Source: Blastocatellia bacterium
GTDB taxonomy: Bacteria; Acidobacteriota; Blastocatellia; UBA7656; JADIYM01
DNA length: 64,000 bases
Direction of reading: 5' to 3'
Assembly (NCBI GenBank): GCA_016705245.1
Contig: JADIYM010000004.1
Coordinates: 175,167 to 239,166, forward strand
In this document: one piece after another, positions 4,060-61,163 of the stretch
Numbering within the stretch: position 1 is the first letter of the stretch
Layout of the letters: every line of letters starts with the position of its first letter
The notes under the pieces: model-generated
The model's database searches: none
Seen by the model: only the letters and a program-made list of their open reading frames with translations
What the model was told of the DNA's origin: nothing
Made by a program: the position numbers and the translations under genes

Positions 4060-4140
4060 AGTTGACAGGATTACAGGATTCTCAGGATTGACAGGATTCT
4101 CTGCGCTTTTTCCATCCTGATAATCCTGTAATCCTGTCTA
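4060..4140. repeat. nested palindrome built from caggatt heptamers (hairpin family copy F); candidate bidirectional terminator between sugE and cls
   Basis: gacaggattacaggatt ... aatcctgtaatcctgtc is a perfect 17-bp inverted repeat. Inner tcaggattgacaggatt / atcctga copies and a gcgcttttt centre are also visible. Confidence 0.6.
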
Positions 4141-5651: not shown

Positions 5652-7701
5652 GCGTCACGTATTGGCCCGGCGAGAACGATGGCAATCGTCCGAAGCAACC
5701 GGTCAGAGCCGCGGTTTCGACCGCGTAGCCGTATTCTTCGAGCGTCCGTCTCGTCACGTCGCGAACAGGCGACTCGTCGTCGACGACGAGAATCCGTTCG
5801 CCAGTGCCCCGCGGCAACGGTTCGTCACGGACGGCCGTCGACTTGATCGCCACGTCGGCAGCCGGAATGTAGACGCGGAACGTGGTTCCCCGCCCGGGCT
5901 CGCTGTAGACGTTTATGAACCCCTCGTGGCCCTTCACGATACCGATGACCGTAGACAGGCCGATTCCCGTCCCCTTTCCCTGCTCCTTCGTCGTGAAGAA
6001 CGGATCGAAGATCTTCCCGATGATGTTCTCCGGAATTCCGACGCCCGTGTCTTCGACCGAGATGGAAACGAATCGGCCCGGCCGGGAATCGATGTTCATT
6101 CGCGAGTAGTTCTCGTCGACCGTCACGTTCGCCGCCGACACGATGAGCCGTCCGCCGTGCGGCATCGCATCGCGCGCGTTGACGCTCAGGTTCATGAGGA
6201 TCTGGTAGAGCTGCGTCGGGTCGCCCCGCACCGTCCAGAGATCCGAACCGATCGACTGCGATATCTCGATCGACTTGGGAAGCGTGTCCCGGAGGATCTT
6301 CACAGCCTCCTTCACAATGTGCTTTGGCTGGAGAACCAGGCGCTCGCCAGACGCGCCGCGCGCGAACGTGAGCACCTGATTCACCATTTCCGAGCCGCGC
6401 TGTGCGCTTGCCTCGAGCGTTTCGAGAAGCTCGAGCGACGAAGCGTCGGCCGTCCGCGTCTGCAGCAGCTGGATGGACATCAGGATCGGCGAAAGTACGT
6501 TGTTCAGATCGTGCGCGATGCCGCCGGCGAGCGTGCCAATGCTTTCCATACGCTGCGCGCGCAGGAACTGAGCCTCGAGCCGCTTCTTTTCAGTCAGGTC
6601 CACCATCGCCGTCAGAATGCACTGCTCGCCTCCGACGTCGATCACCTCCGCGGACGCCAGGACAGTCCGTATCACGCCCTGCCGGTTGCGAAGTCGCGTC
6701 TCGTAGTTCTGGATCGACCCCTCGGCCTTCAGCCTCGTGACGTATTCGCTGCGCATTTCAGGTTCGGTCCAGATTCCGATGTCGCCCGAGTTCTTTCCGA
6801 TGACTTCCTCACGCGTCGCCCCGACGAGCTGCAGAAAGCAATCGTTCACGTTGATGAAAGTTCCGCTGTGCAACTGCGTGATCGCCATCGGATGCGGGCT
6901 TCCGTCAAACGCTCGGGCAAACCGCTCTTCGGACCGAATAAGTTCCTCTTCGTACGCCTTGCGACCACTGATGTCGTAACGGATCGCGACGAAGCGGAAC
7001 GGTTCTCCGTTGCCATCGAGACTCGGGACGATCGTCGTGTCGACCCAATAGAAGCTGCCGTCCTTCGCACGATTGCGGATATCGTCGCGCCAGATCTTTC
7101 CCGAGAGAATCGTCTGCCACATCTCGCGAAAGAACTCTTTCGAGTGGTGACCACTGTTGATGATCCGGTGGTCCTGGCCGATCAGCTCGGCCTCCGAGTA
7201 CTTCGAGATTTTGCAGAATTTGTCGTTTACGAAGAGGATCTGGCCGCGGCGGTCGGTCATTGCAACGATCGCGGAAGCATCAAGCGCTCGGTTGATCTCG
7301 CTCAGCTCGAGCTCCGAGGCCTCGAGGGCGAGTCCCTTCGACAACAGCTCGGACGCATCGCGCGCAATGAGCACACGACCGGCGCCGTCGATGTCCTCCG
7401 ACACTGCGACGTCGCACTCGACGGTCCCGCCGCGAGACTGGAGAAACGTGATCGGACGCCGCGACCGGGTACCCGGCGCGGGAAGCACCGATGCATCGCT
7501 TTCGCGCAGAAGGCGAGCCACGGGACGGCCGACAATCGTGGCTCTACGCCGGCCGAGGAGCCGCACCGCAGCAGGATTGGCGTCGACGACGATGCCATCG
7601 CGGTCCAGAACGAGCACCGCGTCGAACGAGAGCCCGAAGACAGCCTGAAAAGGCGTAGCCGTCGTCGCTGTAATCGTCGCAGACGGAGCTGCCGGCTTCA
7701 T
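5401..7701 (-). CDS. PAS-domain hybrid sensor histidine kinase (3 PAS, HisKA, HATPase_c) ending in a truncated receiver stub
   Basis: Likely start MKPAAPS at 7701. H-box [11 protein letters not shown] and N/G boxes present. The REC start [29 protein letters not shown] is lost after about 30 aa. The ORF then runs without a stop to 5401, overlapping cls in another frame. Confidence 0.7.
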
Positions 7702-8863: not shown

Positions 8864-8914
8864 TCCAACAAACTATGCACGCGGAATCGCGAACTGCATA
8901 GGGCAGGCTCTCGT

Positions 8915-9022
8915 TGCTCTTTTGCGTCTTTGCGTCTTCCTCTGCGCCTTTGCGAGAACTTCTTTCTACGGATTGGAGAATTTCTCGCAAAGGCGCAGAG
9001 GAAGACGCAAGGCGCAAGATGA
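8915..9022. repeat. long imperfect hairpin (hairpin family copy B) in the divergent macro-gene / permease intergenic region
   Basis: tttgcgtctttgcgtcttcctctgcgcctttgcgagaa ... ttctcgcaaaggcgcagaggaagacgcaaggcgcaaga. Core is homologous to copy C at 32110. Confidence 0.6.
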
Positions 9023-9233
9023 GCAGTGAGCCGGCTCGAGGCACGGCAGGGATCCGTAGTTCGCGCCGGGACCTTGATCGAAAGTGACCCACTACCCTCG
9101 GCACGCGCTGCTTGACACGCTGATCCGAACAATCGTCTGATGGAGCGATTTCTTCGCTCGACAGCGCCTTCCTCGAGGTTCCCACGGTGACCCGTCTCGC
9201 AGCCGTCCAACGCCGGTTGATCAACGTGAGCCG

Positions 9234-10617: not shown

Positions 10618-11007
10618 ATGATCGGCGAATTCAAGGAGTTCATCAGTAAGGGCAATGTGCTCGACCTTGCAGTCGGAGTTGTCATCGGAAGCGCGTTCGG
10701 CAAGGTGACGTCGTCGTTCGTTGCGGATGTCCTGACGCCGCCGCTGGGGCTCGTGCTCGGCGGCGTCGACTTCAAGGCCCTGAAGATCGCAATTGGCGGA
10801 TCGGCCGAGGCGCCCGTCACGATCAACTATGGCGTGTTCGTCCAGAGCCTGGTCGATTTCGTGATCATCGCGTTTGCGATCTTCCTCGTCGTCAAGGCTG
10901 CGAACGCTCTTCGACGGACGAAGGACGAAGCTCCGGCGGCGCCAGCTGCCGAGGAGGTTCTTCTTATCGAGATACGCGACATACTCAAAACGCAGAAGGC
11001 GTCTTGA
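10618..11007 (+). CDS. mscL: large-conductance mechanosensitive channel
   Basis: [28 protein letters not shown] is a canonical MscL N-terminus. The ORF's upstream extension from 10489 was rejected. Confidence 0.9.
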
Positions 11008-11019
11008 AGCGCCGGTGAA

Positions 11020-11690
11020 GGTGGGTGGCCGAGCATCAGTACCGCGAGCGGTAGCGAGCTGGCCGGCGGACGGTCGTACGAAGCATTGAGCGTTCTGCGT
11101 CTGGTGGGAGGGGAACCCGCTCGCTCTCGCTCGCGGTACTGATCCTTTGTCAGTCGACTGTGCCTCGCAGGACGCGTCCGTCACTCTCACCTCTCTGACC
11201 TCGTTCGCTTTCAGTCGTACGACCCGCTCGCTCTCGCTCGCGGTACTGATCCTTTGCCAGTGGACTGTGCCGTGCAGGACGCGTCCGTCATATCGCCATG
11301 CATCTTGTGGCGGGATCAGTACCGCGAGCGATAGCGAGCGGGTCGATTTGGAGGCGGGATACGCCGGTGGTCGAGTGCGCTCGTTACCTATCGCGCAGCG
11401 ATTTCGTTCAGCGGACGTGTGTCCGCTGGCCGGGCCCGCTCTCGCTCGCCGTACTGATCCTTTGCCAAAGGACTGTGCCTTGCAGGACGCGTCCGTCATA
11501 TCGCCATGCATCTCGTGACAGGATCAGTACCGCGAGCGATGGCGAGCGGGTCGCACTGGAGGCGGGATACGCCGGTGGTCGAGTGCGCTCGCTACCTACC
11601 GCGCAGCGCTTTCGGTCAGCGGACGTCTGTCAGCTGGCCGGGCTCGCTCTCGCTCGCGGTAGTGACACATGCGGTGTCGGTGCTCTCCAC
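11020..11690. repeat. repeat region: one palindromic MITE/REP-like copy followed by about 2.5 tandem copies of a 208-bp unit carrying the same inverted-repeat core
   Basis: atcagtaccgcgagcggtagcgagc / gctcgctctcgctcgcggtactgat arms. Near-identical units begin around 11222 and 11430. Predicted ORFs here give the same peptide in shifting frames, so they are spurious. Confidence 0.75.
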
Positions 11691-11732
11691 GATGGGCGAC
11701 CGCACCCCCAGGCCGAGTCCCTTCCCCCGCTT

Positions 11733-12449
11733 TCACATCGTTCGGTTCGACAGCTCTAAGAAAAGCTCGCGGAGGTCGACTCTTCGATTCCCTTCGGAAT
11801 CAGACGCACGCTGAATGCGGACGAGTCGCATCTCCGCCGGTCCGATCGTCCAGCAGTCCGACTCAGCGATCTCCTCGATCGGGTCGCCGTGGTCGTTCAG
11901 CGGACAGATGTCGCGATACTCGACGACAGTGCCATCGTCGGCCTCGTCCAACCAGCGCAATGGCATTCCCTGCGTTCGGCAGACATAGGGTCGCGCCTCG
12001 TAGATCCTGCACGCACCCTCCGAATCGAGAAATGCGCATGCCCCAGCGGGATGCGCTTCGGCGCCGACGAGCCGGTCTCCTGCATCGCGGCGTATCCGGT
12101 CCGCCTCCGCCCCGAAAACCGTCAGATGGTCCACGCAGCAGTCCGAGCAACCGCGCCGGCAGGTGATCCGGGCGCCCAGCCGGAGTGTTATCGCCTGGAC
12201 CTCACCGTCCACGCAGGCGTGGAGTGACTCGACACTGTCGATACCAACGGCGTCGGGCTCAGTTAACTGGCCGGGCGGGCTCTCTTCGCTCTGCACTCCA
12301 CCACGATACGCGCCCGTGTGCCGATGCGGCGAGCGTCCCTCCGGCCCGCCGGTCAAAGTCTCACAAGTCACGGTGAAAAGATCGCTGCATCGATCGTCGG
12401 ATCGTACGCGATTCCGGTGATGACCATTCCGAGGTCCTTGCCATTCCAC
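11733..12449 (-). CDS. YkgJ/UPF0153-family Fe-S/zinc cluster protein (CxxCxxCC)
   Basis: CRRGCSDCCVDH and CAFLDSEGACRIYEARPYVCR cysteine clusters. Start uncertain; the N-terminal approximately 80 aa are low-complexity and overlap the next gene. Confidence 0.55.
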   Translation of the reverse strand: MEWQGPRNGHHRNRVRSDDRCSDLFTVTCETLTGGPEGRSPHRHTGAYRGGVQSEESPPGQLTEPDAVGIDSVESLHACVDGEVQAITLRLGARITCRRGCSDCCVDHLTVFGAEADRIRRDAGDRLVGAEAHPAGACAFLDSEGACRIYEARPYVCRTQGMPLRWLDEADDGTVVEYRDICPLNDHGDPIEEIAESDCWTIGPAEMRLVRIQRASDSEGNRRVDLRELFLELSNRTM

Positions 12450-13162
12450 TTGCCGGTTACCCGGGTAGGACCGTAGGAACCATCGACCACCTTCCAGTCG
12501 AAGAACTCCATCTGTGCCGCACGCCCGGGACCCGACGAATCGGCCGAGAGCAGTTCGTATGACTCCACGTCGAAGTACATTTTCGCGACGACACCGGATT
12601 CCGGTCGATGTTCGACGATGAAGGCTTCCTGATCTCGGACCTTCATTCGACCGATGAACTTCAGGTTCGAACTCGACGCCATGGTTTTCTCGGTATAGTC
12701 GAGAATGCCCAGTCCGTTCTCCCTGCGTTCAAGAAGCGATTCCTGCTTCACGAGCATGCCGTTGACTTTCCCCCACTCCACCGACCCGTTCCATCCGGCT
12801 GAGAGCACCATCGACGGCGGCATTGCACGGTTTCGCACGCCAGGGCCGGTCGCCGCATCGGCCTTGCCCGAGAACTGGAGCGCGTAGTGGCCGGCTTCAT
12901 TCTGGGTCAAAGTGAAGTTGCCGAGGTAGGTATCCATTCGCATCGAGCCCTCGATGCGAATCCGTTCAGTCGCTGTGACCACAGACTGCTTCCGCATGTG
13001 GTCGAAGTGCCGCTGCAGGATTTCGTTCGCGTCGGGTTCGCTCCACAGTTCCTTCACGCCACCGGGTCCGCATCCGAGGCCAACCGAGACGGCCAGCATC
13101 CCAAGCATCAGGCCGATTCGCCAGCTCGATCTCCGTCCGCGGCCGCAGAACACATCGAGCAT
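12368..13162 (-). CDS. hypothetical lipoprotein (signal peptide plus lipobox LGC)
   Basis: Likely start MLDVF. Lipobox LGCGPGG, and the remainder is soluble and beta-rich. No catalytic motif. Confidence 0.5.
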   Translation of the reverse strand: MLDVFCGRGRRSSWRIGLMLGMLAVSVGLGCGPGGVKELWSEPDANEILQRHFDHMRKQSVVTATERIRIEGSMRMDTYLGNFTLTQNEAGHYALQFSGKADAATGPGVRNRAMPPSMVLSAGWNGSVEWGKVNGMLVKQESLLERRENGLGILDYTEKTMASSSNLKFIGRMKVRDQEAFIVEHRPESGVVAKMYFDVESYELLSADSSGPGRAAQMEFFDWKVVDGSYGPTRVTGKWNGKDLGMVITGIAYDPTIDAAIFSP

Positions 13163-13211
13163 GGGGCTCACCTCCAGCGAAATTACCCAGAGCGTGCCCC
13201 TCAACAACGCC

Positions 13212-13922
13212 CTACCAGTCCGTTGAGGCGAGAACATACGACCTGATCATTGCACTTGCAAGCGCGAGCTGTACCAGGACCGTGGCGAGCGGGAGCATCT
13301 TCGGTCCGCCCCCGAACATCAACGCGACCTTGTAGGCCAATGAGACCCCCAGGACGGCGATTGCGAGCCCCAGGGCCCGCTTCGATCCCTGGCGCACGAG
13401 CGCCCCGAGGCCGAGCAGGACCGCGCCGGCGGCAACTACGTCGAGCGACGTCGGTCCGTACCACAGAACGGCAATCTGCCCCGCCACGAGATTGATGACG
13501 CCGATCGCAAAGACCATCGGCGCCGCGTCTGCGATGTCCGGATGAACCTCGGATCCACCTCGCACGACGACTCCGTTTACCTGGATACGGAAGCTCGTTG
13601 TCGCCTCGACCCACCACGCATCGATATATGCGTTCCGGCCAAGTTCGAATCTGGCTCCTCCGACAAGGTCTTCGCATTCGGCGAATTCGCCGAGCAGCGT
13701 GCCATCGAGCTCGATGCGAAGGTCGCGGCGCGGCGACGACCATCGAAAGGCAATCTGCTTGGGCCCCCCGGACCGGAGTGGAAAACGCTGCTGCGGCACC
13801 GGACTCTCCTCCACCCCGTCAGCGTTCTCGTCCGCGAGCCTCGCGCAATCGGCTCCACGACCTGAAACCGGCCCACGCGTCAGAAGTGATCGCCCATCGT
13901 TCGTGATCGCACCATCGGCCAC
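13212..13922 (-). CDS. hypothetical membrane protein
   Basis: The C-terminal half has 3-4 hydrophobic helices. Start uncertain. Confidence 0.4.
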   Translation of the reverse strand: MADGAITNDGRSLLTRGPVSGRGADCARLADENADGVEESPVPQQRFPLRSGGPKQIAFRWSSPRRDLRIELDGTLLGEFAECEDLVGGARFELGRNAYIDAWWVEATTSFRIQVNGVVVRGGSEVHPDIADAAPMVFAIGVINLVAGQIAVLWYGPTSLDVVAAGAVLLGLGALVRQGSKRALGLAIAVLGVSLAYKVALMFGGGPKMLPLATVLVQLALASAMIRSYVLASTDW

Positions 13923-16744: not shown

Positions 16745-17190
16745 CCAATAGCATCAGAACCGCGAGCGGTAGCGAGCTGGCCGGCGGACAGTGTTCAGGA
16801 CCACCCGCATCGTGCACTACCATGCAGGCCTGGTCCCGTTCCTTGAGCCGCGAGCGGTAGCGAGCGTCCCACGGACGGTGCCTGAACTCGCAGACTCCTC
16901 CTTGCGGAAGGACGGAAGTAATCGGAACCGGTCGACTGTCCGTGGGACGCTCGCTACCGCTCGCGGCTCAAAAAATCGGGGAAAACCGCAATACCAGGCA
17001 AGCGGAGCGGGCGGGGGGGGGCAAGGACGGCATAATCGGAACCGGTCGACTGTCCGTGGGACGCTCGCTACCGCTCGCGCCTCAATAAACGGGAAAACGG
17101 GGATAACGGGGATCACCCGCATCGTGCACTACCAGGCAGGCCTGGTCCCGTCCCTTGAGCCGCGAGCGGTTACCTACGAGAAGCACCGAT
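16745..17190. mobile_element. cluster of MITE/REP-like repeat copies (composite: type-II segment cacccgcatcgtgcactaccaggcagg plus TIR-bounded type-I units)
   Basis: The TIR gagccgcgagcggtagcgagcgtcccacggacgg and its reverse complement occur three times here. The same units occur at 25500, 40010 and 11030. Confidence 0.75.
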
Positions 17191-17785
17191 AATGGCCGGT
17201 GATCTTCCACGCGAAGAGCACATCCTCGAGCGCCGCGCCCTGTCCGATGTTGTGGACGACGAGTCGGCGCGATGTCGACGCGTCGACCGCATCGGTAACA
17301 ATGCCGATGTGCGGGACGCCTCCTCCGAGGTCCCACGCAACCACGTCGCCGGCCGCGTACCCGGCCGGGTCGTCTCCGATCCCGACCGACGCCCGCTGGC
17401 GCTCGAAATACACCGCGAGGTTCGGGACACGTCGGTGATCGATGTTCGAATCCGGTCGCGAAAGTCCCCACCGCTTCGGATATGCCTTGAAATTCCTACG
17501 CATGTCCTCGTGAACGGCCTGCTGTAGATCCACGCCCGCCGAACGAAACGCGCGAATGACCACGTCCGTACAAACGCCCCGGTCGCTGGGAACGTCGCCT
17601 CCGGGATACCCGATTCGCACGTAGGCAGGATCGTAGATCGTGGTCACACCGATCTGGCTCATCGCCGCCTCGACCACGATGCGGACCGACTGAGATCCGA
17701 TCGGCTCGGTCCGACGCGCCGCATCCGCGGGCGAACACGCCAGCGTCAACACGGCCGCAAGCACTGTCGCGATTCCAGATCTCAC
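17174..17785 (-). CDS. secreted DUF1287-like protein
   Basis: Signal peptide MRSGIATVLAAVLTLACS. The VCTDVVIRAFRSAGVDL segment resembles DUF1287, from memory only. Confidence 0.45.
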   Translation of the reverse strand: MRSGIATVLAAVLTLACSPADAARRTEPIGSQSVRIVVEAAMSQIGVTTIYDPAYVRIGYPGGDVPSDRGVCTDVVIRAFRSAGVDLQQAVHEDMRRNFKAYPKRWGLSRPDSNIDHRRVPNLAVYFERQRASVGIGDDPAGYAAGDVVAWDLGGGVPHIGIVTDAVDASTSRRLVVHNIGQGAALEDVLFAWKITGHYRCFS

Positions 17786-17971
17786 GATTCACATTCTGGC
17801 TGCCAACGCCGGCGATCGACAAGCCCGCGACGCGCAACGGCTGCGAGGAACATAGCGATCGCGCCGACGCGGCAACACCAGGCCCCGTTAGTCCCAGGCG
17901 AATGACAGTCGCGGCGCGGGCAGCATGCTCCAGGTGCGGCGAGCCTGCCGAGACGGGTACACTCTGCCGCG

Positions 17972-24083: not shown

Positions 24084-25571
24084 TGAGCGCGGCGTACAAC
24101 GCGAGTCGCGCGAGATCGGGCAGCTTTCCGAGCCAGGCAGGCACGCTGCCGCGCTCCTGAACGAGCTGCACCGCCTCGAGCAGAATGACGAAAGCGACGG
24201 TCAGCGCGAGCTCGATCCCGTCGAATCCAGGGACCGCGATAGGCTGCGCGGCGTCCGCCCAACTCGCAATCCGCATTATGACCGCGCTCGCGTCGCCGAC
24301 CGACTCAGCGCGGAAGAAGATCCATGCGAACGTCACCAGGTGGAACGTCGCGAGTCCGGCGACGAGCGGCCGCAGTCGAGCTGTCGCCGTGCCGGCCGCG
24401 GACCATGCCCTCTCGCGCAGACTGGATGAAGCGAGAGCCGCCACCATGAACCCGCCGTGCAGCGCTCCCCAAACCAGGTAAGTCCAGTTTGCCCCGTGCC
24501 AGAAACCGCTGACCGTGAAGACGATCATGAGATTCGCAGCGAGCCGCCACGCGCCGACCCTGCTGCCGCCGAGCGGTATGAACACGTAATCGCGAAACCA
24601 CGTCGAGAGCGAAATGTGCCATCGCCGCCAGAAGGCGCGAATCGAGGTTGCGAAGTAGGGCCGCTCGAAATTTCGCGTCAGGTCGAATCCGAGGACTCGA
24701 GCGGCACCGACGGCGATATCCGAGTACCCCGAGAAGTCGCAGTAGATCTGATAGGCGAAACAGTACGTTGCCACCGTCAGTCGCAAGCCGGATTGCGACG
24801 ATGGATCGTCGTAGACGGCATTCACGAAAACCGCCAGCCGGTCGGCGATCACGAGCTTCTTGAAGAAGCCCCACAACATGAGCCGGAGGCCCGACGCCGC
24901 CATCGCCGGATCGAATCGATGCTCGACGAGGAATTGCGGCAGAAGGTGTGCCGCTCGCTCGATCGGGCCGGCAACAAGCTGCGGAAAGAAGGCAATGAAG
25001 AGTGCGAAGCGTCCGAGATGACGCTCGGGCTCGCGCTCGCGACGGTAGATGTCGATCGTGTAGTTGAGAGCCTGGAACGTGTGGAACGAAATGCCGATCG
25101 GCAGAATGACGTCGAGATCGGGAATGCCATAAAGCACGTCGAACGACTCGGTGACCGAACGGAGCGTGTCGTTGACGAAGTTGAAGTACTTGAAGAAAAA
25201 GAGCAGTCCGAGATTGGACGCCAGACTGATGCCGAGGAAGAGCCGGCGGCGGGCCTCCGTCGATGCCCCGGCAATCACCCGCCCGGCAATGTAGTCTACG
25301 ATCGTGAGCAGCCAGATGACCGCTACGTAAGCGGGCTTCCAGCTTTATCAAAGTAGTAGGAGGCGACGAGCAGCCACGCCCATCGCACGCGGTGCGGGAT
25401 CAGGAAATAGACCACCGCGACGATCGGGAAGTAGACGAGAAAGTGGAGTGAGTTGAAGAGCACGAGATCGTGTGGTCTGGCGACGGGGGCGCTGCCCCGC
25501 GTGGATTCTCGCCGCGAACGCCGATCAGGCCAAGGGCGCATCAGAACCGCGAGCGGTAGCGACCGTCCCAC
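24022..25571 (-). CDS. MBOAT-family membrane O-acyltransferase (AlgI/DltB/PatA-like) with a 1-nt frameshift near 25345-25352
   Basis: N-terminal piece LHFLVYFPIVAVVYFLIPHRVRWAWLLVASYYF (frame 1, stop at 25323). Continues as SWKPAYVAVIWLLTIVDYIAGRVIAGAS...HTFQALNYTIDIYRRE...FPQLVAGPIERA (frame 2). The junction is at gataaagc (A-run). Confidence 0.75.
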
Positions 25572-25835
25572 GGACGGTGCCTGAAATCGCAGACTCGTCG
25601 TTGCGAAAGGACAGAAGTGACCGGAACCGTTCGACCGTCCGTGGGACGCTCGCTACCGCTCGCGGCTCATAAAACGGGGATCACCCGCATCGTGCACTAC
25701 CAGGCAGGACGCTCCGCCGGTCCCCGTTCCTCGTCCCCGTTTTTCGAGCAGCGAGCGGTAGCGAGCGTCCCACGGACAGTGCCTGAAACCGCCAGCGCCC
25801 TACTCATCGACGCAGCCTCGCCCGGCAAAACCTCT
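25500..25835. mobile_element. MITE/REP-like composite repeat copy (full type-I unit plus type-II segment plus extra left TIR)
   Basis: gaaccgcgagcggtagcgaccgtcccacggacggtgcctgaaatcgcagactcgtcgttgcgaaaggacag...ccgtccgtgggacgctcgctaccgctcgcggctca, then gatcacccgcatcgtgcactaccaggcagg. Confidence 0.75.
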
Positions 25836-27354: not shown

Positions 27355-27430
27355 CAGAGCCGGCGCGATTGCCGTACGCATTCAGTACCGTGCGCGGTAG
27401 CGCACGGGTCACACTCCTGGCACGGACAGC
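27355..27430. repeat. short degenerate copy of the MITE/REP-like inverted repeat
   Basis: cagtaccgtgcgcggtagcgcacgggtcac ... ccggcatcagt. Confidence 0.4.
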
Positions 27431-32109: not shown

Positions 32110-32196
32110 CACCTGCGCCTTTGCGCCTTTGCGCCTTTGCGAGAACTTCTTCGACGGCTTGAAGAGTTTCTCGCAAAGGCGCAAAGGCGCAAGAGA
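32110..32196. repeat. long hairpin with three tandem cctttgcg units per arm (hairpin family copy C); terminator-like, downstream of the 32226-33926 operon
   Basis: ctgcgcctttgcgcctttgcgcctttgcgagaacttcttcgacggcttgaagagtttctcgcaaaggcgcaaaggcgcaagag. Confidence 0.6.
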
Positions 32197-38559: not shown

Positions 38560-38695
38560 ACGGGCGGTCCACGCATCAGTACCGGGCGCGGTAGCGCTCG
38601 GGTCAGCCTCTCCGTTAGCCCGCTCCTGGTGTCGTCACACGCGCTCGGGATCGACCCGAGCGCTACCGCGCCCGGTACTGATGCGTGAGGCGTGC
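38560..38695. repeat. variant copy of the MITE/REP-like palindromic element
   Basis: catcagtaccgggcgcggtagcgctcgggtc ... gacccgagcgctaccgcgcccggtactgatg. Confidence 0.7.
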
Positions 38696-40009: not shown

Positions 40010-40205
40010 CGGGGTGCCTGGTAGTCCACGATGCGGCTGTTCCCCGCTTCTCCCCGTTTTTCGAGCCGCGAGCGGTAGCGAGCGTCCCACGGACGGTCGT
40101 TCGGTTCGATCACTTCCGTCCTTCCACAACGACGAGTCTGCGATTTCAGGCACCGTCCGTGGGACGCTCGCTACCGCTCGCGGCTCAAGGAACGGGGAAC
40201 GAGGA
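40010..40205. mobile_element. MITE/REP-like composite repeat copy (opposite orientation)
   Basis: gagccgcgagcggtagcgagcgtcccacggacgg ... ccgtccgtgggacgctcgctaccgctcgcggctca. The internal segment is the reverse complement of the 25548 copy. Preceded by a type-II segment in reverse orientation. Confidence 0.75.
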
Positions 40206-40244
40206 ACGAGGAACGGGGAAGCATCCTGCCGCCGATCGCGTCTC

Positions 40245-61038: not shown

Positions 61039-61062
61039 GCCGGGCGAGCCACCCGCGCGACT

Positions 61063-61163
61063 CCGTGTCTCTGTGACCCTGTGCCTCTGTGTGCGAAGCT
61101 CCTCAGATCGTCTCAAGAGCTTCGCACACAGAGACACGACGGCACAGAGGCACAGAGATCACG
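61063..61163. repeat. long hairpin (hairpin family copy E) between convergent genes; arms of ctctgtg / cacagag units
   Basis: gtgtctctgtgaccctgtgcctctgtgtgcgaagctcctcagatcgtctcaagagcttcgcacacagagacacgacggcacagaggcacagagatcac. Confidence 0.6.

Follow-up and report, generated by a model that had tools for sequence, protein, structure and literature searches.

In a stretch of 64,000 nucleotides from a Blastocatellia bacterium (GenBank assembly GCA_016705245.1, contig JADIYM010000004.1, positions 175,167 to 239,166 of the forward strand; hereafter the window, numbered from its first nucleotide), the gap between mscL, the gene of the large-conductance mechanosensitive channel, and a convergent gene of the CxxCxxCC family holds a tandem array with a unit of 208 bp. 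This array is interpreted here, with a probability of about 0.72, as a cluster of repetitive extragenic palindromic (REP)-type repeats resembling a bacterial interspersed mosaic element (BIME), that is, as selfish or near-neutral intergenic hairpin DNA. The array is a real but ordinary kind of element, and the REP-like repeat family from which it is built seems undescribed; a search of the literature with both strands of the core found no paper containing it, and neither the core nor detail on Blastocatellia is given in the RepRanger paper or its supplements.

Layout of the array

A tandem array of about 208-bp units following mscL had been proposed from the letters of the window, with copies starting near 11120 (partial), 11222, 11430 and 11640 (partial). 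Both the array and these start points are borne out, the latter because 69-nt pieces and 24-nt cores sit at those positions. Tandem Repeats Finder (TRF) reports a 208-bp period at 11229–11665, with 2.1 copies, 91% matches, 0 indels and a score of 741, and two more partial copies lie upstream of the array as called by TRF. By repeat search, two complete 208-bp units are 91% alike (11226–11433 and 11434–11641), where the original prediction had put unit identity at 90–95%. In addition, the 69-nt piece is present three times (11115–11183, 11222–11290 and 11430–11498; identity 86–94%) and the 24-nt core four times, always as a direct repeat (11119, 11226, 11434 and 11642). The 31-nt core quoted originally, GATCAGTACCGCGAGCGATAGCGAGCGGGTC, has four matches at two or fewer mismatches against 0 expected in 100 shuffles, and the shorter core CAGTACCGCGAGCG has seven matches within 11037–11664. 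The left edge had been misplaced, as the array starts further left, with an arm at 11032 that follows the mscL stop codon after 24 nt. The array takes up the 725-bp intergenic gap of the two convergent genes.

The array consists of seven good and two decayed copies of an arm of about 31 nt, mostly alternating in orientation, a feature that the original prediction left unstated. With F for an arm on the given strand, R for one on the complement and (r) for a decayed arm, the order is F R R F (r) R F (r) R. Each 208-bp unit combines a pair of intact arms and a decayed one with two linkers, one of 60 nt lying between arm tags that face one another, the other of 94 nt; both linkers recur in the array, whose arm spacers measure 53, 60 and 94 nt. 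Alternating REPs, recurring linker motifs and a block reiterated in tandem, the traits by which a BIME is recognised, are therefore all found in it.

The array is non-coding, as had been claimed, because 208 is not a multiple of three and the open reading frames (ORFs) across the array have no Pfam match. The peptide MHLV.GSVPRA.ASGS.WRRDTPVVECARYL is indeed repeated in different frames; it starts two ORFs, at 11298 and 11506, and the frames are two, not three. A CRISPR array, which the original prediction had also rejected, is ruled out, as it requires direct repeats of 24–48 nt with unique spacers of similar size, whereas here the arms alternate in orientation and the would-be spacers, the intervening stretches of 60 and 94 nt, are themselves repeated.

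The arm and its stem-loop

The consensus of the arm is (G/A)RTCAGTACCGCGAGCG-NNN-GCGAGCGGGTC, and the array's arm reads GGATCAGTACCGCGAGCG-ATA-GCGAGCGGGTC. Its 5' end carries a conserved tag, (R)TCAGTA with a C behind it, from which it continues into a stem-loop of the form CCGC-GA-GC / 4-nt loop / GC-GA-GCGG, having an 8-bp stem with a conserved tandem G·A/A·G mismatch. The loops are of the GNNA type (GGTA, GATA, GAGA, GTGA and others), those of the array's own arms being GATA, GATG and GAGA. A 'mini' form, TCAGTACCGCGAGCGGTAGCGAGCGGTACTGA, in which one arm is closed by both tags, is present in two genomes.

The fold is supported by covariation across 50 distinct arms. The tandem G·A/A·G is kept in 45–46 of them and replaced by G-C/C-G in 4, while pair 10–23 is CG in 40, GC in 4, UA in 3 and GU in 2, and pair 8–25 is CG in 38, GU in 5 and UG in 2. 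Altogether, 16 cells are changed on both sides, compared to 3.4±1.4 in shuffles (0 of 500 reach 16), and the covariation score is 0.157 against 0.055 when shuffled and at most 0.080 with the partners slid. The variant subfamilies listed in Table 1 preserve the stem pairing via compensating changes, and variant arms give perfect hairpins. A fold alignment of 18 doublets was uninformative, its sequences having been picked by the exact core pattern.

The arm is considered REP-like because the tag adjoins a small imperfect palindrome whose fold has this covariation behind it. In the broad sense of the term, REPs are short (20–40 nt) imperfect palindromes that form a stem-loop, and the arm is one; moreover, it is dispersed, extragenic and present in high copy number, it forms head-to-head and tail-to-tail dimers, as REPs do with spacers of 20–100 bp, and it is found in clusters with reiterated dimers.

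Regarding larger structures, inverted arm pairs folded as single strands reach predicted energies of −36 to −52 kcal/mol (z from −4.4 to −10), as seen for 11029–11149 (F0/R1; −36.4 kcal/mol, z = −5.3), 11217–11348 (R2/F1; −52.5 kcal/mol, z = −10.1) and 11312–11461 (F1/R4; −49.3 kcal/mol, z = −5.7). The variant arm at 27382 has a predicted hairpin of −12.1 kcal/mol (z = −5.5).

Site history and strain comparison

The neighbouring permease gene has an identical copy in GCA_016704725.1, a Blastocatellia metagenome-assembled genome (MAG), on the 115-kb contig JADIZP010000032.1, which is 99.3% identical to the window and yet a distinct sequence. This independent assembly has an identical arm order and unit number, with substitutions and almost no indels. 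Going to more distant relatives, the mscL and CxxCxxCC genes overlap and hold no element in L141–144 (permease 75% identical), are separated by an armless spacer of about 20–30 nt in L129 and L139 (85–86% identical), and are separated in the sister species L133–138 (87% identical) by 189 nt with exactly one 136-nt doublet. A metagenome scan with the neighbouring permease gave distant relatives only, at 48% identity or less bar one short partial match (55% over 114 residues).

The alignment with the sister-species contig L133 locates the growth precisely. By BLAST, window 10900–11077 corresponds to L133 6426–6600 (82.6%), 11623–11688 to 6650–6713 (80.3%) and 11727–11900 to 6717–6890 (83.9%), so that window 11078–11622 stands in place of L133 6601–6649, i.e., 49 nt of the doublet loop. 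From this collinearity of the flanks, it follows that the ancestral doublet's arms persist as the outermost ones of the array, its first F and its last R. The comparison of the relatives shows that the array grew in place, from no element through one doublet to the present array. A second cluster of arms in the window (cluster 2; Table 1) repeats this pattern, with its first arm at the orthologous position of L133 and the site empty in L141.

Between the two near-identical strains, the array changes much faster than its surroundings. Window and JADIZP01 contig have 21 differences in the 371 nt of 11300–11670 (5.7%), compared to about 0.6% over the other 20 kb, an about ten-fold excess (odds ratio 9.6, p = 2e-13), with the initial 311 aligned positions identical. 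The two units are 91.3% alike in the window and 97.1% alike in JADIZP01. The loop of the last arm is TCT in the window, like the neighbouring arms, and TACC in JADIZP01, like the ancestral type, a difference that fits gene conversion among arms. Cluster 2 also differs, by about one doublet, between the window and the near-identical contig L125. At this place L125 has an intact additional doublet (17748–17869), and the corresponding window stretch, 16986–17023, is about 90 nt shorter, degraded and carries a nine-G run (GGCGGGGGGGGGC), which may reflect real decay or a local assembly error.

These comparisons suggest the following course of events. One inverted doublet, able to fold into one long hairpin, would have sat between the convergent mscL and CxxCxxCC genes, and in the lineage of the window about 500 bp of added arms and linkers would have built up inside its loop. 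Then, the 208-bp block would have been duplicated head to tail with its intact arm pair, its decayed arm and both linkers, most likely because arms of the same orientation recombined unequally or let replication slip, and gene conversion among the arms probably continues to reshape the array. By analogy with REPs and their inverted doublets, a Y1 (HUH) transposase of the type of the REP-associated tyrosine transposases (RAYTs) or of TIRYT may recognise the arms as single-stranded hairpins and spread them genome-wide. When transcribed from either flanking gene, the array is predicted to fold into very stable hairpins and could act as a transcription barrier or as a stabiliser of 3' ends; any such effect on transcripts would be a by-product and not the cause of the array's existence.

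The dispersed family

The GCGAGCG-NNN-GCGAGCG core occurs 15 times in the window, compared to 0.9 expected, and the arm profile finds 15 copies at E ≤ 0.01 in the 64 kb, plus several weaker ones that include the variants at 27382 and 38570–38690. They are grouped in about six sites, all of them between long ORFs, namely the array itself (11032–11666) and the further clusters, doublets and lone arm of Table 1.

Other genomes were scanned with the query TCAGTACCGCGAGCGNNNGCGAGC, taking one genome per species, and at least 111 loci in at least 28 assemblies were found. Among the matches listed, nearly all belong to Blastocatellia, Pyrinomonadaceae or unclassified Acidobacteriota, together with two Planctomycetota MAGs and a few labelled Clostridia or Heliomicrobium; the viral contigs gave no arm match. 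The MAGs with these last two labels and a Blastocatellia arm are represented by the CAZXLQ01 (including L133), CAZQBW01, JAJNQA01 and CAZRXE01 loci, and their labels look wrong. The Clostridia label of CAZXLQ01 is doubtful because more than 10 genes around mscL lie there in synteny with the Blastocatellia contig, the permease being 87% identical.

The usual form elsewhere is the inverted head-to-head doublet, F-spacer-R, with the TCAGTA ends outermost, and arms are also found singly and as tail-to-tail pairs. The doublet spacers are variable in sequence and fall into two size classes, of 17–25 and 32–35 nt, with 30 of the 31 doublets inside 17–35 nt; the initial spacer bases are often complementary, and the doublet hairpin reaches 0–3 nt past TCAG. 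In these 31 doublets, no target-site duplication beyond chance was found at offsets 0–4 and lengths 2–8, as is characteristic of REPINs, the inverted REP doublets.

Local amplification around arms is recurrent, because other genomes hold different tandem arrays based on them. At positions 1–330 of L013 (Blastocatellia DTUACD2), an 87-bp unit with one R arm is repeated at least 3.5 times, and at L054 4925–5135, a repeat of about 62 bp lies between a tail-to-tail arm pair. The resemblance of the tail-to-tail unit to L111 (71% similarity) was not used as evidence of unit mobility, the similarity coming mostly from the arms.

Alternative explanations

Nested or duplicated miniature inverted-repeat transposable elements (MITEs), meaning non-autonomous derivatives of an insertion sequence with a DDE transposase, would explain the arms as terminal inverted repeats, and the original prediction had likewise envisaged a satellite created by repeated MITE insertion and duplication. 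The part of that proposal that stands is the dispersed inverted-repeat element with local duplication; the element behaves like a REP rather than like a classical MITE with its transposon-type footprint, nor did the array arise from many independent insertions. In favour of MITEs, the arms act as terminal inverted repeats of about 26–31 nt around short variable interiors, and relatives have an empty site. However, besides the absence of target-site duplication at any offset in the 31 doublets, clustering of all ORFs in the 111 listed loci revealed no recurrent transposase ORF beside arms, and among the fetched loci there was no long element bounded by arms and no full-length insertion sequence with the same ends. 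Moreover, the interiors vary widely between copies of one genome, where copying from a master would be expected, arms occur singly and in tail-to-tail pairs too, and the covariation indicates a stem-loop within each arm that a double-stranded transposase-binding site does not need. MITEs are thus regarded as unlikely.

The arm could also be a duplex binding site for a host protein, with two GCGAGCG half-sites 10 bp apart from start to start, so that the array would serve as a protein-loading platform between convergent genes. GCGAGCG-N3-GCGAGCG is in fact the most invariant part of the arm, and a 10-bp phasing places both halves on the same helix face. Nevertheless, the variants CCGTGCGC-GGTA-GCGCACGG and CCGGGCGC-GGTA-GCGCTCGG lose the direct repeat and keep the local complementarity, which fits a hairpin rather than two identical half-sites, and no candidate protein is linked to the arms, which makes this explanation improbable.

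A functional RNA, either as tandem small RNA genes, another of the original suggestions, or as a structured 3'-untranslated element regulating mscL or the convergent gene, agrees with the very strong structure predicted on either strand (−219 kcal/mol for the entire 721 nt, z = −7.9), with the position of the array directly after two stop codons, and with the RNA-level effects reported in the REP literature (PMC3733652). On the other hand, Rfam 15 has 0 matches at the gathering score in the whole window, a search of 10950–11800 at E-value threshold gives only chance-level, sub-threshold matches to hairpins of microRNA type (E > 0.03), and no promoter-like or terminator-like sites were found at the array. 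Relatives that have the two genes also carry no element or a single one between them, the stretch is the fastest-diverging one between two near-identical genomes, at about ten times the divergence of its surroundings, and the same arm is scattered over unrelated intergenic regions. The small RNA suggestion therefore finds no support, and a functional RNA in any form appears very improbable.

Finally, a collapsed or expanded repeat produced by assembly, the outcome that the original prediction had named as fatal to it, is hardly conceivable even though short-read assemblies break here (the same-species contig JBATCU010001035.1 ends within the first R arm and L133 in an arm of cluster 2), because arm order and unit number are unchanged in the independent, 99.3%-identical JADIZP010000032.1.

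Weighing the REP interpretation

Several observations count against the interpretation of the array as a BIME-like cluster of REPs. The hairpin energy of the consensus arm is ordinary (−5.7 kcal/mol, z = −0.8), because the G·A pairs count in the energy model as an internal loop. The covariation is carried by few sister subfamilies, and relatedness can inflate such counts. The tag, TCAGTA(C), is neither the GTAG nor the CGTC of the two described REP superfamilies, and the family fails as a GTAG- or CGTC-tagged one for that reason; the array's own arms lack GTAG, which the GGTA-loop subfamily alone shows, in its loop. The first internal arms may have arisen by insertion or by inverted duplication; the linker after R1 resembles the right flank only marginally (39 of 2000 shuffles), with no signal for the other two linkers when the 60-nt linker was considered as derived from that flank. 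As for a mobilising enzyme, neither tblastn nor a scan for the HUH...Y motif detected a Y1/HUH transposase in the window and about 1 Mb of fetched loci, the tblastn queries, sequences of E. coli RAYT and of IS608 TnpA, serving as leads only, and Pfam found no Y1/HUH transposase among the ORFs bracketed by arms. The sample searched is a tiny and biased part of these genomes, and a Y1 enzyme consequently stays an inference.

In a bolder version, the arms are an undescribed third kind of REP whose tag is TCAGTA and whose stem must have the tandem G·A mismatch; its sequence would be near-constant throughout the class Blastocatellia and leave traces in Planctomycetota MAGs, an acidobacterial TIRYT-type Y1 transposase or something new could mobilise it, and its clusters would be recombination hot spots between near-identical strains. 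This version is put forward tentatively, as a possibility more doubtful than probable.

At the level of the locus, the meaning of the array is small, as it is intergenic repeat DNA, absent in near relatives, with nothing pointing to a gene or regulator. The arm itself provides a short signature by which a very abundant Blastocatellia repeat can be recognised, and this signature accounts for contig breaks in short-read MAGs and flags sites of rapid structural change between strains. In addition, the family is a test case outside Proteobacteria for the recognition of REP-type hairpins, because its tag is neither GTAG nor CGTC and its stem mismatch is a conserved tandem G·A.

Features and neighbouring sequences

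Table 1. Arms, repeat units, neighbouring genes and further arm sites in the window, with variant arm sequences
Feature	Position	Strand	Basis or remark
mscL, large-conductance mechanosensitive channel	10618–11007	+	Pfam PF01741, E 3.4e-42; gene call at 11385–11774 of near-identical contig L125 equals these coordinates
Arm F0 (AGCATCAGTACCGCGAGCGGTAGCGAGCTGG), left arm of ancestral doublet	11032–11062	+	Collinear with F arm of the single doublet in L133
Arm R1	11115–11145	−	Head-to-head doublet with F0, 53-nt spacer; followed by 38-nt extension common to R2 and R4
Arm R2, opens full unit 1	11221–11252	−	Tail-to-tail pair with F1, 60-nt spacer; inverted repeat of 33 nt, 97% complementary
Tandem unit 1, 208 bp	11226–11433		Repeat search and TRF
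Arm F1 (GGATCAGTACCGCGAGCGATAGCGAGCGGGTCG)	11313–11345	+	Exact match to the quoted core; predicted local hairpin ((((..((....))..))))
Decayed arm (CGCTCGTTACCTATCGCGC...) within 94-nt linker of unit 1	11377–11405	−	Read off the sequence; counterpart in unit 2 detected
Arm R4, opens unit 2	11434–11460	−	Head-to-head pair with F1, 94-nt spacer
Tandem unit 2 (208 bp; identity with unit 1, 91%)	11434–11641		Repeat search and TRF
Arm F2	11520–11553	+	Core match and repeat search
Decayed arm within linker of unit 2	11586–11613	−	11586–11603 is an inverted repeat of F arms; weak match to arm profile
Arm R6, last arm, right arm of ancestral doublet	11642–11668	−	Conserved right flank tgcggtgtcggtgct adjoins directly
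CxxCxxCC (YkgJ-type) zinc/iron-chelating family gene, convergent, downstream	11733–12449	−	Pfam PF03692, E 2.3e-9
Cluster 2, five arms, 114-bp internal repeat	16748–17170		Core pattern and arm profile
Cluster 3, three arms	25537–25770		Core pattern and arm profile
Lone variant arm, perfect local hairpin (CCGTGCGC GGTA GCGCACGG)	27382–27410	+	Sequence and fold
Head-to-head doublet, variant arm (CCGGGCGC GGTA GCGCTCGG)	38570–38690		Core and variant search
Head-to-head doublet, GAGCCGCGAGCGGTAGCGAGCGTCCCACGGAC subfamily	40066–40183		Core pattern and arm profile
Arm as single oligonucleotide			TCAGTACCGCGAGCGGTAGCGAGCGG
Variant arm	27386		CCGTGCGC-GGTA-GCGCACGG
Variant arm	38580		CCGGGCGC-GGTA-GCGCTCGG
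Variant arm	several loci		CGGGGAGC-GTGA-GCGACCTG

The coordinates of the CxxCxxCC gene are those of the maximal ORF, and its real start is probably more internal; the orthologue in L133 was called as 175 aa. Between this gene and the next conserved one lies a 289-aa ORF (12368–13237, minus strand) with no Pfam match; a gene of 264 aa is called for it in the near-identical contig, whereas L141 and the sister species L133 have nothing corresponding, and it may be a lineage-specific insertion beside the array.

Other short repeats occur near the arms. Purine-rich short tandem repeats adjoin arm doublets at 17087–17113 (AAACGGGA/GGGATAACG) and 40188–40220 (AGGAACG, 4.7 copies), and, along with runs of CCCGTT type at the opposite end of the doublets, may extend the hairpins. 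A motif of about 30 nt, TA(G/T)AGCGG(A/T)TTGCAA(T/A)TG..TGTACGG, is present in the Blastocatellia loci L009, L027, L030, L037, L063, L079 and L103, often about 20–60 nt from arm doublets and from a sister hairpin family (CAGTACGGGGAGCGTGAGCGACC).

The window also contains hairpins of another kind. A second, unrelated hairpin repeat at 478–550, 8914–9029 and 32114–32192 has arms made of tandem octamers, three of CCTTTGCG against two to three of CGCAAAGG, around a loop of about 30 nt; one copy is in the 370-bp gap between a Macro/SUFU gene and the permease, and a related copy is found in the Blastocatellia locus L052 (81% over 84 nt). Similarly, the arms of the hairpins at 61054–61163 and 4065–4137 are runs of 8–9-nt units, with GTGNCTCT... 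facing ...CACAGAGN in the former, which has a 77% match in L006 (from the sister-species MAG), and CAGGATT. facing ATCCTGTA in the latter. Similar CACAGAGG hairpins are present in L002 and L030.

Comparison with known repeat systems

Di Nocera et al. (2013; PMC3733652) divide REPs into GTAG- and CGTC-tagged superfamilies, in which the tag is followed by a stem of 5–13 bp and a loop. According to the same survey, dimers are head-to-head, tail-to-tail or head-to-tail with spacers of 20–100 bp, clusters hold dimers reiterated along with flanking DNA, and most REPs are situated downstream of genes, where the ORFs to either side are convergent or unidirectional (PMC3733652). The arms share the tag-stem-loop architecture, with a stem of 8 bp, the dimer types and the clusters of reiterated dimers; their tag belongs to neither superfamily, though GTA is common with GTAG. 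The phyla with GTAG repeats, as far as they are listed there, do not include Acidobacteriota by name, and stem mismatches are stated to be required for RAYT cleavage in E. coli (PMC3733652).

From Acidobacteria, the survey reports RAYT-like Y1 transposase genes, TIRYT, flanked by long inverted repeats, as well as TIRtrons, moderately abundant inverted-repeat families for which a spread by a Y1 transposase is proposed and some of which share GGGGWSAS (PMC3733652). Inverted-repeat families in the same phylum are the point of likeness. However, TIRYT/TIRtron repeats are defined there by the flanking transposase gene, some with GGGGWSAS, and neither is seen here.

The element size, the inverted ends and the intergenic setting recall the Correia/NEMIS elements. 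These MITEs of Neisseria measure about 100–150 bp, have inverted ends of about 26 nt, are intergenic and are co-transcribed with their neighbours; they duplicate a TA target and have conserved interiors, whereas here there is no target duplication and the interiors are variable.

A further likeness is offered by the REPIN-RAYT systems of Pseudomonas and enterobacteria, reportedly treated by Nunvar in 2010, by Bertels and Rainey in 2011 and by Ton-Hoang in 2012, and summarised in PMC3733652. As in those systems, the inverted doublets form one long hairpin with a variable spacer and no target-site duplication, copies are dispersed and number in the hundreds, singletons resemble decayed doublets, and the stem has a conserved mismatch. 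The differences are that no RAYT gene is tied to these arms in the window and the fetched loci of about 1 Mb, and that the arm sequence is common to at least 28 species-level genomes, while REPIN populations are usually species- or genus-specific.

The array also resembles the REP/BIME of E. coli, especially BIME-2, known from the work of Gilson, Bachellier and colleagues. There, REPs are short imperfect extragenic palindromes, often between convergent genes, and in BIME-2, they alternate in orientation with recurring linkers, in a two-REP block that is reiterated head to tail with a copy number variable among strains; integration host factor (IHF), DNA gyrase or DNA polymerase I (Pol I) bind the linkers or the REPs. 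The sequences have no similarity, the tag being TCAGTA here and GTAG there, the stem here includes the tandem G·A, and the linkers are longer (60 and 94 nt), one of them with a decayed arm. Nevertheless, imperfect palindromes, alternation, recurring linkers, a reiterated block and a setting between convergent genes are common to the E. coli elements and to the array downstream of mscL.

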